Positions 4,979 through 62,434 of a stretch of 64,000 nt of DNA are shown one piece after another. Source of the DNA: Escherichia coli (GTDB lineage Bacteria > Pseudomonadota > Gammaproteobacteria > Enterobacterales > Enterobacteriaceae); assembly GCF_022846255.1 (NCBI RefSeq), contig NZ_AP025682.1; one strand, given 5' to 3'. A program made the position numbers and the translations under genes. Position 1 is the first letter of the stretch; every line of letters begins with the position of its first letter. The notes under the pieces were generated by a model. It saw only the letters and a program-made list of their open reading frames with translations, did not search any database and was not told the DNA's origin.

Positions 4979-5713
4979 GTGGGTAATAATTTAATGCAGA
5001 CGGACCTCTCCGTCTGGGGTATGTATCAGCACGCCGATATTGTCGTTAAGTGCGTGATGATTGGGCTTATTTTGGCCTCCGTAGTCACCTGGGCAATCTT
5101 CTTCAGTAAGAGCGTGGAGTTCTTCAATCAGAAGCGTCGTCTTAAGCGCGAGCAGCAACTGCTGGCTGAAGCGCGTTCCTTAAACCAGGCCAACGATATC
5201 GCCGCTGATTTTGGTAGCAAAAGCTTGAGCCTGCATTTGCTCAATGAAGCGCAGAATGAGCTGGAACTGTCAGAAGGCAGCGACGATAACGAAGGTATTA
5301 AAGAACGTACCAGCTTCCGTCTGGAGCGTCGGGTCGCCGCAGTAGGTCGTCAAATGGGCCGCGGTAACGGCTATCTGGCAACCATCGGCGCGATTTCGCC
5401 GTTCGTTGGTCTGTTTGGTACGGTCTGGGGCATCATGAACAGCTTTATTGGTATCGCGCAAACGCAGACCACTAACCTGGCAGTCGTTGCGCCGGGTATT
5501 GCAGAAGCTCTGTTAGCAACGGCAATCGGCCTCGTGGCAGCGATTCCTGCGGTCGTTATCTATAACGTATTTGCACGCCAGATTGGCGGCTTTAAAGCGA
5601 TGCTGGGTGATGTTGCAGCGCAGGTATTGTTGCTGCAAAGCCGTGACCTGGATCTGGAAGCCAGCGCCGCTGCGCATCCGGTTCGTGTCGCACAAAAATT
5701 ACGTGCAGGATAA
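4979..5713 (+). CDS. exbB: TonB-system energiser ExbB (MotA/TolQ/ExbB proton channel), 244 aa
   Basis: GTG start; protein MGNNLMQTDLSVWGMYQ... matches remembered ExbB; followed by exbD. Confidence 0.93.
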   Translation: MGNNLMQTDLSVWGMYQHADIVVKCVMIGLILASVVTWAIFFSKSVEFFNQKRRLKREQQLLAEARSLNQANDIAADFGSKSLSLHLLNEAQNELELSEGSDDNEGIKERTSFRLERRVAAVGRQMGRGNGYLATIGAISPFVGLFGTVWGIMNSFIGIAQTQTTNLAVVAPGIAEALLATAIGLVAAIPAVVIYNVFARQIGGFKAMLGDVAAQVLLLQSRDLDLEASAAAHPVRVAQKLRAG

Positions 5714-5719
5714 TGTCCG

Positions 5720-6145
5720 ATGGCGATGCATCTTAACGAAAACCTCGACGATAACGGCGAAATGCATGATATCAACGTGACGCCGTTTATCGACGTGATG
5801 TTGGTTTTGCTGATTATCTTTATGGTGGCGGCACCGTTAGCGACGGTAGATGTGAAGGTGAATTTGCCTGCTTCTACCAGCACGCCGCAGCCGCGCCCGG
5901 AAAAACCGGTTTATCTGTCGGTGAAAGCAGACAACTCGATGTTTATTGGTAACGATCCGGTCACCGATGAAACAATGATTACGGCGTTGAATGCGTTAAC
6001 CGAAGGCAAGAAAGACACCACCATCTTCTTCCGTGCGGATAAAACTGTCGATTACGAGACGTTGATGAAGGTAATGGATACGCTGCATCAGGCGGGTTAC
6101 CTGAAAATAGGTCTGGTCGGCGAAGAAACTGCGAAAGCGAAATAA
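5720..6145 (+). CDS. exbD: TonB-system protein ExbD, 141 aa
   Basis: ORF-track protein; single N-terminal TM; operon partner of exbB. Confidence 0.93.
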   Translation: MAMHLNENLDDNGEMHDINVTPFIDVMLVLLIIFMVAAPLATVDVKVNLPASTSTPQPRPEKPVYLSVKADNSMFIGNDPVTDETMITALNALTEGKKDTTIFFRADKTVDYETLMKVMDTLHQAGYLKIGLVGEETAKAK

Positions 6146-6150
6146 AAATG

Positions 6151-6185
6151 ATGCCCGGTTGCTTTTCACAACCGGGCATTTTTTT
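6151..6185. terminator. Rho-independent terminator after exbD (bidirectional with yghA)
   Basis: 10-bp stem atgcccggtt / aaccgggcat, 9-nt loop, followed by 7 T. Confidence 0.8.
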
Positions 6186-7068
6186 AACCTAAATGCTCGC
6201 CGCCGCAGACACCGTGCACTTCTGCGGTGACGTAGCTCGACTCCTGACTTGCCAGGTAAACATATACAGGGGCCAGCTCCGCCGGTTGCCCCGCACGCTT
6301 CATCGGCGTTTTCTGACCAAACTGCGGGATCTTATCCTGCGTTTGTCCGCCAGAAATTTGCAGTGCTGTCCAGATCGGGCCTGGCGCGACAATATTCACC
6401 CGAATACCTTTCTCCGCGACCTGTTTTGCCAGGCCACGGCTGTAGTTCAGAATTGCCGCCTTCGTAGCCGCATAGTCCAGTAAATGCGGGCTTGGCTGGT
6501 ATGCCTGGATTGAGGAAGTGGTGATGATACTTGCACCTTTCGGTAGCAGGGGGATCGCTTCCTGGGTTAGCCAGAACAACGCGAAAACGTTAATGGCAAA
6601 GGTCTTTTGAAACTGTTCGCTGGTGAGGTCTGCAATATCAGGAATGGCAACCTGTTTCCCGGCTACCAGCGCCATAATATCCAGCCCGCCTAACGCCTTG
6701 TGTGCTTCGTGAACCAGCGAACGGGCGAATTTCTCATCGCTTAAATCGCCTGGCAGCAGAACGGCTTTGCGTCCGCATTCTTCAATGATCTTTTTCACAT
6801 CCTGAGCGTCTTCTTCTTCCACGGGAAGATAACTGATCGCCACGTCAGCCCCTTCACGCGCGTAAGCAATGGCGGCAGCGCGACCGATTCCGGAATCGCC
6901 CCCTGTCACCAGTGCTTTACGATCTTTCAGGCGACCGCTACCAACATAGGTTTTCTCGCCGCAATCCGGTACCGGTGTCATCTTCGCCTGGATGCCTGGC
7001 GTCGGTTGTTTCTGTTTGGGATATTCACCAGTGTAATACTGCGTGGTCGGGTCTTTTAAATGAGACAT
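6184..7068 (-). CDS. yghA: NADP-dependent aldehyde reductase (short-chain dehydrogenase/reductase), 294 aa
   Basis: [10 protein letters not shown] Rossmann motif in translation; length and position match E. coli YghA. Confidence 0.9.
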
Positions 7069-7189
7069 CGTTTTTCTCCCTTCAGGTTCAACGTCCTTTA
7101 AGGGTAGACGCTCTCGATGCGTTGATAAGGGAACCAGGAAGATCCCTAACCCTCAGAATTATGCGACAAAGGTTTAACGTATATGTTGA

Positions 7190-7792: not shown

Positions 7793-8833
7793 TCATTTAT
7801 CGGAAGACGCCTGCCACAGATTCAGCTCTCCATCGGCGATATGCTGATCAATCTGCGCCAGCTCCTCGGTGCTAAATGTCAGATTATTCAGCGCCTGCAC
7901 GTTCTCCTCAAGTTGCTCCGCGCGGCTGGCACCAATCAATACCGACGTCACTCGCTCATCTTTCAGCAACCAGCTTAACGCCATTTGCGCCATTGATTGT
8001 CCACGCTGCTGTGCCATTTCATGCAATAAGCGCAGGCTGTTGAGGTTGGCTTCGGTGAGCATTTTCGGCGTCAGACCACGAACTTTATTCCCTTCATGAT
8101 GCATCCGTGAATCTTGCGGAATACCGTTGAGATATTTTCCGGTCAGCAATCCCTGAGCCAGTGGAGTAAAGGCAATGCAGCCCACGCCGTTATTTTGCAG
8201 GGTATCCAGCAGGCCGCTTTTATCCACCCAGCGGTTCAGTAAATTGTACGAAGGTTGATGAATTAACAGCGGAATTTTCCACTCGCGCAGCAACTCGACC
8301 ATTTTTTGCGTCCGCTCTGGCGAGTAAGAGGAGATCCCGACATACAGCGCCTTACCGCTTTGTACCGCATGAGCCAGCGCAGAGGCGGTTTCTTCCATCG
8401 GCGTATTTTCATCGACGCGATGAGAGTAAAAGATATCGACATACTCAAGCCCCATACGCTTCAGGCTTTGGTCGAGGCTGGCGAGCAGGTATTTACGTGA
8501 GCCGCCAGAGCCGTATGGACCGGGCCACATATCGTATCCGGCTTTGGTAGAGATAATCAGTTCATCGCGATAAGCGGCAAAATCCTCGCGCAGCAGGCGA
8601 CCAAAGTTTTCTTCTGCGCTTCCTGGAGGCGGCCCGTAATTGTTGGCTAAATCAAAGTGCGTAATGCCTAAATCAAACGCTTTACGCAGGATCGCACGCT
8701 GTGATTCCAGCGCGTTAACGTGACCGAAATTGTGCCATAAACCGAGCGATAACGCGGGCAGGCGTAAACCACTTTTTCCGCAATAGCGGTACTGCATCCG
8801 CCCGTAACGTTCGGGATTCGCTAACCAGACCAT
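7793..8833 (-). CDS. gpr: L-glyceraldehyde-3-phosphate reductase (aldo-keto reductase), 346 aa
   Basis: ORF-track protein MVWLANPERYGRMQYRYCGKSGLRLPALSLG...; also known as yghZ. Confidence 0.92.
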   Translation of the reverse strand: MVWLANPERYGRMQYRYCGKSGLRLPALSLGLWHNFGHVNALESQRAILRKAFDLGITHFDLANNYGPPPGSAEENFGRLLREDFAAYRDELIISTKAGYDMWPGPYGSGGSRKYLLASLDQSLKRMGLEYVDIFYSHRVDENTPMEETASALAHAVQSGKALYVGISSYSPERTQKMVELLREWKIPLLIHQPSYNLLNRWVDKSGLLDTLQNNGVGCIAFTPLAQGLLTGKYLNGIPQDSRMHHEGNKVRGLTPKMLTEANLNSLRLLHEMAQQRGQSMAQMALSWLLKDERVTSVLIGASRAEQLEENVQALNNLTFSTEELAQIDQHIADGELNLWQASSDK

Positions 8834-8989
8834 GACCTCTCCTTTCCACCATTCAATTTCGAAACAATGTTTCTAGTTTAGCGATTCGCCAGCGCGTATC
8901 CCGTAGTCTGGCTCACAGAGTGACGAAAAACTGGGCAAAAACACGCGCTTATGCTTTGCTTAAAAAAACACCAGTTGAGGAGTGCAACG

Positions 8990-9877
8990 ATGCCGCGTTT
9001 AACCGCCAAAGATTTCCCACAAGAGTTGCTGGATTACTACGACTATTACGCTCACGGGAAAATCTCGAAACGTGAGTTCCTCAACCTTGCGGCGAAGTAT
9101 GCAGTGGGCGGGATGACGGCATTAGCGCTGTTTGATTTGCTCAAGCCAAATTATGCGCTGGCGACTCAGGTAGAGTTTACCGACCCGGAAATTGTTGCAG
9201 AGTACATCACGTATCCCTCGCCAAATGGTCACGGCGAGGTACGGGGTTATCTGGTGAAGCCCGCAAAAATGAGCGGTAAAACGCCAGCCGTGGTAGTGGT
9301 GCATGAGAATCGAGGGCTGAATCCGTATATCGAAGATGTGACGCGGCGAGTGGCGAAGGAAGGGTACATCGCCCTGGCGCCAGACGGTTTAAGCTCAGTA
9401 GGTGGCTATCCTGGTAACGATGATAAAGGCCGCGAACTGCAACAGCAGGTTGATCCAACCAAACTGATGAATGATTTCTTTGCCGCAATTGAGTTTATGC
9501 AACGCTATCCGCAAGCGACAGGCAAAGTGGGTATTAGCGGATTTTGCTATGGCGGGGGCGTATCGAACGCGGCAGCAGTCGCGTATCCGGAACTGGCCTG
9601 CGCGGTGCCGTTTTATGGGCGTCAGGCACCCACTGCCGATGTGGCGAAGATTGAAGCGCCTTTACTGCTCCACTACGCTGAACTGGATAGCCGAATCAAC
9701 GAGGGCTGGCCCGCTTACGAGGCGGCGTTGAAAGCCAATAATAAGGTCTATGAGGCGTATATATATCCGGGGGTTAATCACGGATTCCATAATGATTCCA
9801 CGCCCCGTTATGACAAATCTGCCGCCGATCTTGCCTGGCAAAGGACGTTGAAATGGTTCGATAAATATCTCTCCTGA
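8990..9877 (+). CDS. yghX: Dienelactone-hydrolase-family protein, apparently intact, 295 aa
   Basis: Start chosen at MPRLTAKDF with GAGGAG RBS 9 nt upstream; alpha/beta-hydrolase-like G-x-C/S-x-G (GFCYGG). Confidence 0.75.
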   Translation: MPRLTAKDFPQELLDYYDYYAHGKISKREFLNLAAKYAVGGMTALALFDLLKPNYALATQVEFTDPEIVAEYITYPSPNGHGEVRGYLVKPAKMSGKTPAVVVVHENRGLNPYIEDVTRRVAKEGYIALAPDGLSSVGGYPGNDDKGRELQQQVDPTKLMNDFFAAIEFMQRYPQATGKVGISGFCYGGGVSNAAAVAYPELACAVPFYGRQAPTADVAKIEAPLLLHYAELDSRINEGWPAYEAALKANNKVYEAYIYPGVNHGFHNDSTPRYDKSAADLAWQRTLKWFDKYLS

Positions 9878-9958
9878 TGGGTTTATCTCTTACAGGATTA
9901 CGTCTTAAACAAGCATGAAAAAATAGCGTGCGCAAATGTCGTTCTTTGCCTAAAATAT

Positions 9959-9982
9959 CGCTATATATGACAATATATAGCG
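9959..9982. promoter_or_regulatory. Perfect palindrome upstream of yghW (candidate operator overlapping a -10-like TATATA)
   Basis: cgctatatat-gaca-atatatagcg, 10-bp arms with 4-bp spacer, 14-37 bp upstream of the yghW ATG. Confidence 0.45.
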
Positions 9983-9995
9983 AATGAGGTGAACG

Positions 9996-10283
9996 ATGAA
10001 TAACCATTTTGGTAAAGGCTTAATGGCGGGATTAAAAGCAACGCATGCCGACAGTGCGGTTAATGTGACAAAATTCTGTGCCGATTATAAACGCGGTTTT
10101 GTATTAGGCTACTCACACCGGATGTACGAAAAGACCGGAGATCGCCAGCTTAGCGCCTGGGAAGCGGGTATTCTGACGCGCCGTTATGGACTGGATAAAG
10201 AGATGGTAATGGATTTCTTTCGTGAGAATAATTCCTGTTCTACGTTGCGCTTTTTTATGGCCGGTTATCGCCTAGAAAATTGA
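9996..10283 (+). CDS. yghW: Small protein of unknown function (DUF2623-like), 95 aa
   Basis: ORF-track protein; position upstream of hybO as in E. coli. Confidence 0.8.
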
Positions 10284-10471: not shown

Positions 10472-11590
10472 ATGACTGGAGATAACACCCTCATCCATTC
10501 TCACGGCATTAACCGTCGTGATTTCATGAAGCTTTGTGCAGCATTAGCCGCCACCATGGGGTTAAGTAGCAAAGCCGCTGCAGAGATGGCCGAATCGGTT
10601 ACTAACCCGCAGCGTCCGCCAGTTATCTGGATTGGCGCGCAGGAGTGCACCGGTTGTACGGAATCTCTGCTTCGTGCAACGCATCCAACGGTAGAAAACC
10701 TCGTGCTGGAGACTATCTCTCTGGAGTATCACGAAGTGCTTTCCGCCGCCTTCGGTCATCAGGTCGAAGAGAACAAACATAACGCTCTCGAGAAGTACAA
10801 AGGGCAGTATGTGTTAGTGGTGGATGGTTCCATCCCATTAAAAGATAACGGTATTTATTGCATGGTTGCCGGTGAGCCGATTGTGGATCACATCCGCAAA
10901 GCGGCGGAAGGCGCAGCAGCCATTATCGCTATCGGTTCCTGCTCTGCGTGGGGCGGCGTCGCCGCAGCTGGAGTTAACCCAACTGGCGCAGTCAGCCTGC
11001 AAGAAGTTCTGCCTGGCAAAACCGTTATCAATATTCCTGGCTGCCCGCCGAACCCGCACAACTTCCTGGCGACCGTTGCGCACATCATCACTTATGGCAA
11101 ACCGCCGAAACTGGATGACAAAAACCGTCCGACTTTCGCCTATGGTCGTCTGATTCACGAACACTGTGAACGTCGCCCGCACTTCGATGCTGGTCGTTTT
11201 GCCAAAGAGTTCGGTGATGAAGGCCACCGCGAAGGCTGGTGCCTGTACCACCTTGGCTGTAAAGGGCCAGAAACTTACGGCAACTGCTCAACGCTGCAAT
11301 TCTGCGATGTTGGCGGCGTGTGGCCGGTAGCGATTGGTCACCCGTGCTATGGCTGTAACGAAGAAGGTATCGGCTTCCATAAAGGCATCCATCAGCTTGC
11401 CAACGTCGAAAACCAGACTCCGCGTTCACAGAAACCGGACGTTAACGCTAAAGAAGGCGGCAACGTCTCGGCAGGCGCTATTGGTTTGCTCGGCGGTGTG
11501 GTTGGGCTGGTTGCCGGTGTCAGCGTGATGGCGGTGCGTGAACTGGGTCGTCAGCAAAAGAAAGATAACGCTGACTCACGGGGAGAATAA
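10472..11590 (+). CDS. hybO: Hydrogenase 2 small subunit, Tat-exported, 372 aa
   Basis: Twin-arginine motif RRDFMK near N-terminus; Cys-rich FeS ligands; C-terminal TM anchor. Confidence 0.95.
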
Positions 11591-17028: not shown

Positions 17029-17114
17029 TGTAGGCCTGATAAGACGCGGCAGCGTCGCATCAGGCATTGTGCTCGATTGCCGGATGCGGCGTGAACGCCT
17101 TATCCGGCCTACAT
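17029..17114. repeat. REP/BIME element (two inverted REP units)
   Basis: Classic REP sequences gccggatgcggcgtgaacgccttatccggcctac and taggcctgataagacgcggcagcgtcgcatcaggc. Confidence 0.85.
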
Positions 17115-62327: not shown

Positions 62328-62422
62328 GTTTTCGGCTATTAAAAAGGTCAAACCGGCTGAGTGAATTTTATCCAGTTACAAATAAGCATTACCTCCAGTG
62401 TATTGGTAGCTGTTAAGCCAAG

Positions 62423-62434
62423 GGCGGTAGCGTA
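62423..62434 (+). promoter_or_regulatory. ops element (RfaH recruitment site, JUMPstart core) in kpsM leader
   Basis: GGCGGTAGCGTA, containing the 8-bp ops core GGCGGTAG, 32 bp upstream of kpsM ATG. Confidence 0.8.

Follow-up and report, generated by a model that had tools for sequence, protein, structure and literature searches.

Positions 8990-9877 of the window (the whole stretch of 64,000 nucleotides of Escherichia coli DNA that was analysed, and to which all coordinates refer) very probably hold yghX in its intact form, the ancestral allele and the one that most E. coli genomes carry. It encodes the precursor of a hydrolase of the dienelactone hydrolase (DLH) fold with a probable Tat-type signal, and the pseudogene found in K-12 is the derived form. 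At this locus it is K-12, and not the strain of the window, that is unusual. Much is already on record: the K-12 pseudogene, the NCBIfam model, thousands of deposited intact sequences, a crystal structure and the publication on the small protein YqhI. What is added here is modest, namely the exact site and order of the two K-12 lesions, their frequencies, and a comparison of the RR and KR forms of the N-terminal motif.

The yghX reading frame and its surroundings

The reading frame consists of an ATG, 295 sense codons and a TGA, with zero internal stops, and is preceded by a GAGGAG sequence 7 nt upstream. The preliminary description, made from the same DNA, had called yghX an intact ORF with a good ribosome-binding site and a product resembling dienelactone hydrolases, and it was right in these respects. 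The features referred to in this and the following sections are listed below, with the basis of each assignment in parentheses.

7793-8833, minus strand: gpr (yghZ), L-glyceraldehyde 3-phosphate reductase, divergent upstream neighbour (ORF and syntenic annotation)
8977-8982, plus strand: Shine-Dalgarno sequence GAGGAG (read from the sequence)
8990-9877, plus strand: yghX coding sequence (ORF list, alignment, NCBIfam NF041440, Pfam DLH)
8990-9097, plus strand: 'YqhI-like' N-terminal segment, codons 1-36, PF23678 (same sequence as YqhI residues 1-36)
8990-9163, plus strand: predicted signal peptide, residues 1-58 (motif, hydrophobic residues 32-52, A56-L57-A58)
9065-9082, plus strand: S-K-R-E-F-L, codons 26-31, KR variant of a twin-arginine-type motif (homologue comparison)
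9098-9099, plus strand: TA (equivalently AT at 9099-9100) in codon 37, intact here, site of the 2-bp deletion of K-12 (alignments)
9459-9460, plus strand: CC in codon 157, both Cs present here, site of the 1-bp deletion of K-12 (alignments)
9545-9547, plus strand: codon of Cys186, nucleophile in the G-F-C-Y-G-G elbow (Cys in 30/34 homologues; aligned in 3F67 and 4ZV9)
9686-9688, plus strand: codon of Asp233, triad acid (invariant, 34/34 homologues)
9779-9781, plus strand: codon of His264, triad base (30/34 homologues; aligns with the His of 3F67)
9996-10283, plus strand: yghW (DUF2623), downstream neighbour (ORF and annotations)
10472-11590: hybO, following yghW (ORF and annotations)

The ORF listing also offers an in-frame ATG at 8951, 39 nt upstream of 8990, which would give a product of 308 aa, and this longer form is apparently used by at least one GenBank record (RBY19516.1). 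The upstream start was rejected: it is not preceded by a Shine-Dalgarno sequence, and the N-termini of the homologues disagree with it. The RefSeq annotations of syntenic genomes, the homologue N-termini and the fact that YqhI begins with MPRLTAKDF all support position 8990 as the true start. The same start codon is used in K-12 by the SPA-tagged small protein YqhI (PMC6001520).

A simple promoter/terminator scan of positions 8700-10100 gave nothing that exceeded the shuffled expectation, and no sigma-70 consensus was found by it on the plus strand upstream of yghX. The gene order gpr - yghX - yghW/hyb is the same as that annotated in K-12, BM28, CRE1540, O157 and FHI_NMBU_03. Between yghX and yghW, a perfect palindrome with 11-nt arms and a 4-nt spacer (TCGCTATATAT-GACA-ATATATAGCGA) occupies positions 9958-9983, stopping 12 nt before the yghW start codon; the K-12 copy is identical. 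It looks like a candidate operator for a dimeric regulator, or else a hairpin over the yghW ribosome-binding site.

Family assignment of the protein is clear. The NCBIfam model NF041440 ('YghX family hydrolase') scores 582.1 bits against a curated cut-off of 460, residues 3-294 aligning to profile positions 1-292 of 292. Pfam DLH (PF01738) covers residues 84-294 with its full profile (1-217 of 217; E = 1.9e-47, 162 bits against a gathering cut-off of 21), and the Pfam family PF23678 ('YqhI-like') matches residues 1-36 with E = 1.4e-21. Comparison of the window gene with intact alleles of other lineages gave a dN/dS of 0.04 at a dS of 0.22-0.24, which shows that intact yghX is under purifying selection. 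With such a ratio and two such model scores the ORF cannot have arisen by chance; it is a real gene.

The exact protein has been deposited before (BDH31883.1 and others, on 24 contigs). Known members of the YghX family (WP_001297303.1, WP_001302757.1, and 4ZV9 of O157:H7 Sakai) represent the same gene at the same locus with the same length of 295 aa, and across residues 59-294 the window protein is ~97% identical to 4ZV9. From the nearest copy in a complete genome the window allele is separated by a few substitutions (99.5% DNA identity) and by no difference of substance. It is an ordinary, already catalogued allele.

The predicted enzyme

The mature part of the protein would be an alpha/beta hydrolase of the dienelactone hydrolase fold with a Cys186-Asp233-His264 triad, which Glu106, lying within a conserved H-E-N-R-G motif, would accompany. 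Conservation of individual residues, here and below, was counted in a set of 34 full-length homologues with 37-68% identity; the values for the triad are those given in the list. The counterpart of Cys186 in the putative DLH 3F67 lies in a GFCWGG elbow, and 4ZV9 is identical to YghX at this site. The latter structure, deposited as 'uncharacterized protein' of E. coli O157:H7 Sakai at 2.0 Å, aligns to residues 59-294 (E = 1.5e-158). A plant DLH esterase is reported to share the Cys-Asp-His triad with 4ZV9 (PMC8533429).

Purified 'EcoDLH' failed to act on either of two phosphotriesters, and in its crystal the active-site cysteine was modified or oxidised (bioRxiv 10.1101/2025.10.30.685675). These negative phosphotriesterase tests are the published assays that we found, and the literature reports no natural substrate for YghX/EcoDLH. 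Nor is the function of yghX established in the papers on W3110 integration, on cPHB candidates or on YqhI, or in annotation tables. Otherwise the gene is mentioned, judging by titles, mostly in metabolic-engineering work.

ClcD of Pseudomonas knackmussii (1DIN, 4U2B and others) acts in chlorocatechol degradation. It shares with YghX the PF01738 domain, the alpha/beta-hydrolase fold and the Cys (in G-x-C-x-G-G), Asp and His residues. The relationship is however distant (E about 4e-15): YghX aligns only from residue ~73, onto residue 6 of the ClcD chain, and ClcD is without the N-terminal extension of YghX. Since yghX lies outside any catechol-degradation cluster, its natural substrate is probably not a dienelactone. 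Most likely, YghX hydrolyses esters or lactones in the periplasm.

The neighbourhoods of three distant yghX homologues had no conserved operon partner in common. The homologue with 68% identity (Logan SRR23272323 contig, 5001-7108) directly adjoins an aldo-keto reductase gene, the only recurring neighbour, in an arrangement that echoes the adjacency of gpr and yghX in E. coli. This may be a weak functional link.

The two lesions of K-12 yghX

The preliminary description took yghX of K-12 to be a frameshifted pseudogene and proposed alignment to the K-12 gene as the check. It was correct. MG1655 yghX (b4658) is annotated as a pseudogene, and direct alignment showed that it is not identical to the window ORF, differing by a 2-bp deletion, a 1-bp deletion and ~47 further substitutions. 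The two indels remove TA from codon 37 and one C of CC from codon 157. Both dinucleotides are there in the window, at 9098-9099 and 9459-9460, which places it outside the K-12-type pseudogene allele class. Since the two deletions sum to 3 bp, the original frame is back after codon 157, and the 120 codons between them are read out of frame in K-12, where stop codons occur, the first after codon 47. With both gaps masked, just 5 residues separate the K-12 protein from that of the window.

In the annotation of MG1655, the 47-codon gene yqhI (b4755) is placed over the 5' end of yghX. Translation of the K-12 sequence in frame 1 gives MPRLTAKDFPQELLDYYDYYAHGKISKREFLNLAAK-CGRRDDGISVV followed by a stop, and YqhI, which was reported and detected by SPA tagging in K-12, is exactly MPRLTAKDFPQELLDYYDYYAHGKISKREFLNLAAK-CGRRDDGISVV (PMC6001520). 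Promoter region, ribosome-binding site and the first 36 codons are identical between K-12 and the window, but K-12 yields only the 47-aa YqhI, whereas the window encodes a 295-aa enzyme.

The yghX 'pseudogene' serves as an integration site for metabolic engineering in W3110 (PMC7677707). This 'neutral' site corresponds to a conserved intact gene in BL21, O157 and B2 strains and in ~72% of complete E. coli genomes. The case shows once more that K-12 is not a typical reference strain where yghX is concerned; beyond such bookkeeping it has little importance.

Frequencies and order of the lesions

To determine how common the lesions are, 5,426 complete E. coli genomes were typed with 52-54 nt queries, using a 28-mer megablast seed that was forced to span the indel. 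The following numbers of genomes were obtained.

Site 1 (TA, codon 37): intact in at least 3,592, deleted in at least 1,505 of 5,426
Site 2 (C, codon 157): intact in 4,221, deleted in 1,199 of 5,426

The allele fractions are approximate because ~328 genomes were left untyped by the short queries at site 1 (3,592 + 1,505 = 5,097), presumably owing to SNPs in the flanks. An even-rank sample of 59 full-length matches comprised 42 alleles of 888 nt (71%), 3 of 886 nt (5%) and 14 of 885 nt (24%), which indicates that the untyped genomes mostly carry full-length alleles. None of the 59 was an 887-nt allele, as would result from the C deletion alone. Full-length yghX is present in ~72% of the 5,426 complete genomes, a collection in which laboratory derivatives of K-12 are over-represented.

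RefSeq tags the 885- and 886-nt copies as 'frameshifted' and gives WP_ protein accessions to the 888-nt copies. Strains HS and CFSAN064036 have only the TA deletion, and both copies are annotated as 'frameshifted'; in a comparison of eight sequences the C was the sole difference between CFSAN064036 and K-12 yghX. The gene is intact in BL21-Gold(DE3) and likewise full length in O157 and B2 strains. Outside the species, orthologues of 295-298 aa with 85-91% identity and both Pfam domains occur in E. fergusonii, Citrobacter, Pseudescherichia, Enterobacter, Kosakonia and Leclercia, and when these were checked for the two K-12 deletions, the orthologues proved to be full length and did not carry them. 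Taking into account that the outgroup genera all have full-length orthologues, the intact allele is ancestral. The earlier suggestion that this strain may retain the functional ancestral allele was thus well founded as to ancestry, but its emphasis on the strain was misplaced, as most complete E. coli genomes have the gene intact.

HS carries the TA deletion alone, hence the TA lesion came first. The simplest history is that the intact gene was inactivated by the loss of TA and that the loss of C was secondary. In this scheme, a sublineage including the commensal HS would have lost TA in codon 37, leading to truncation after 47 codons; the truncated product is the small protein YqhI of K-12. 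The C in codon 157 would have been lost later, in an already dead gene, and by chance this restored the downstream frame.

Over its whole length the window shares 99.5% identity with B2-type genomes, A0 34/86 among them, and its yghX is 99.1-99.5% identical to that of many B2-like genomes, all of which are full length. Within the gene, differences between the B2-type and the A/B1/E alleles are dense at positions 9341-9436 (codons 118-149), where they fall on nearly every third codon position. This block, together with the overall dS of 0.22-0.24 and dN/dS of 0.04, suggests that the alleles at the yghX locus split long ago or that a segment there has recombined.

In NCTC9041 the best match to yghX was a 96-nt fragment (2502-2597 of the extracted locus, between IS1F and mdtM) with ~97% identity to the 3' end of the gene, and a near-identical copy at the yghX locus was not detected. 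The fragment is annotated as 'dienelactone hydrolase family protein, missing N-terminus' and represents a second locus beside an IS1 element. A search with the full yghX sequence gave 6,097 places in 5,425 genomes, and some of the surplus may be due to relics of the NCTC9041 type.

Alternative explanations for the intact frame

Some K-12 pseudogene calls have historically been due to sequencing errors, and the frameshifts could on this precedent be errors of the reference that reflect no real difference between strains. This reading is refuted, and has practically no chance of being correct: the same deletions are present in 1,199 to 1,505 independently assembled complete genomes, including non-laboratory isolates, HS has just one of the two lesions, and YqhI, the out-of-frame product of 47 aa, has been detected by experiment (PMC6001520). 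An opposite possibility is that the difference is real but that the window allele is a secondary revertant, or was repaired by recombination after having been broken. Its strong divergence from the A/B1/E alleles, with the dense synonymous block in codons 118-149, would be compatible with recombination. However, the window falls in the B2-type allele group, whose members are without exception full length, the deletions occur solely in alleles that hardly differ from that of K-12, the outgroups are intact, and a broken intermediate is not required; we consider such a repair extremely improbable, if somewhat less so than reference errors. It could also be argued that yghX of the window is open without being a working gene, being either silent or a catalytically dead relic that has yet to gain a stop. 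Neither a natural substrate nor a phenotype is on record, the simple sigma-70 scan gave no plus-strand promoter in the gpr-yghX spacer, and the ~28% of E. coli genomes that do without intact yghX show that the gene is dispensable. Against this stand the dN/dS of 0.04 over a dS of about 0.22, the full-length orthologues with 85-91% identity in several genera, the conservation of the triad and of HENRG, the ability of the O157 protein to fold and crystallise (4ZV9), and the fact that the same promoter and ribosome-binding site give detectable YqhI in K-12 (PMC6001520). Taken together, these observations make a non-working gene very unlikely and favour the intact, ancestral allele of a functional enzyme gene.

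The N-terminal segment and export

In addition to the enzyme domain, the 295-residue precursor has an N-terminal portion of ~58 residues that would be a Tat-type signal peptide with a natural KR variant of the motif. Its n-region (residues 1-25) would be unusually long and conserved, and after a hydrophobic stretch the signal would be cleaved at A-L-A. At positions 27-28, 27 of the 34 homologues have RR and 3 have KR, R28 being present in at least 90%; F30 was found in 29/34 and L31 in 22/34. Hydrophobic residues 32-52 precede A56-L57-A58, in which A56 is shared by 21 and A58 by 24 of the 34 homologues, and the presumed hydrophobic region holds the charged residues K36, D49 and K52. Alignment with the crystallised construct 4ZV9 begins at residue 59; residues 1-58 are absent from it. 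Among the profile models, TIGR01409 gave weak matches in 8 of the 34 homologues and other Tat-signal HMMs also matched some of them, but E. coli YghX itself matched neither TIGR01409 nor the Pfam Tat-signal HMMs. As the E. coli protein has KR and no Tat HMM match, the argument for its Tat dependence comes from the homologues.

Long n-regions are found in the Tat signals of hydrogenase and molybdoenzyme precursors such as HybO, which is encoded next door. YghX has in common with signal peptides of this kind a weakly hydrophobic region, AxA and a long n-region, of ~25 residues, and its motif resembles S/T-R-R-x-F-L-K. E. coli YghX differs from them in having KR and in that its n-region forms a Pfam family of its own, PF23678, and no cofactor or partner chaperone is known for it. 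Residues 1-31 (8990-9082, including the KR motif) are nearly invariant across genera of Enterobacteriaceae, and an L-Y-D-x-Y-x-H motif ahead of the RR/KR pair is kept in homologues of only ~40% identity. Conservation of residues 1-31 far exceeds that of ordinary signal peptides, a hint that the segment may have some further function, or another one altogether.

Functional Tat motifs of the KR type are known to occur naturally, and on balance we regard export of YghX by the Tat pathway as probable, though well short of certain, judging from sequence comparison. A possible but less likely competing reading is that YghX is not Tat-exported. Residues 1-58 would then be an uncleaved membrane anchor or a Sec signal, or would serve regulation or oligomerisation in the cytoplasm, and the enzyme would act as a cytoplasmic or inner-membrane protein. 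The KR pair and the lack of a Tat HMM match in the E. coli sequence speak for this reading, as does the near invariance of residues 1-31 across genera, which is atypical of signal peptides. Also in its favour is an earlier listing of yghX as a candidate cPHB polymerase, with the cellular location unspecified; this was a secondhand mention in 2013, derived from the GXCXG motif (PMC3709699). What tips the scale towards Tat export is RR-x-F-[LMIV] at the same position in 27/34 distant homologues, with a hydrophobic stretch and a conserved AxA behind it, together with the matches of Tat-signal models to some homologues, the omission of residues 1-58 from the crystallised construct, and the existence of working KR variants. 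Cleavage of the signal, a periplasmic location and an esterase/lactonase chemistry are likewise inferred. It is conceivable, but rather improbable, that the N-terminal 36 residues are more than a signal peptide and constitute a docking site for a dedicated export chaperone or proofreading factor, or have an activity of their own that persists in K-12 as the 47-aa YqhI. If this were true, the K-12 'pseudogene' would have been remodelled to encode a small protein and would not be a case of pure decay.

Other elements in the window

Several RNA elements elsewhere in the window gave Rfam matches above the gathering score: the sRNA ES173 at 379-442 on the minus strand (92.5 bits), naRNA4/CssrE at 17033-17109, matched on both strands of the same interval, and the sRNA C0719 at 42356-42577 on the minus strand (296 bits). 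A JUMPstart element was found at 62396-62434 on the plus strand (58.5 bits; gathering score 35); JUMPstart elements precede long polysaccharide or virulence operons.
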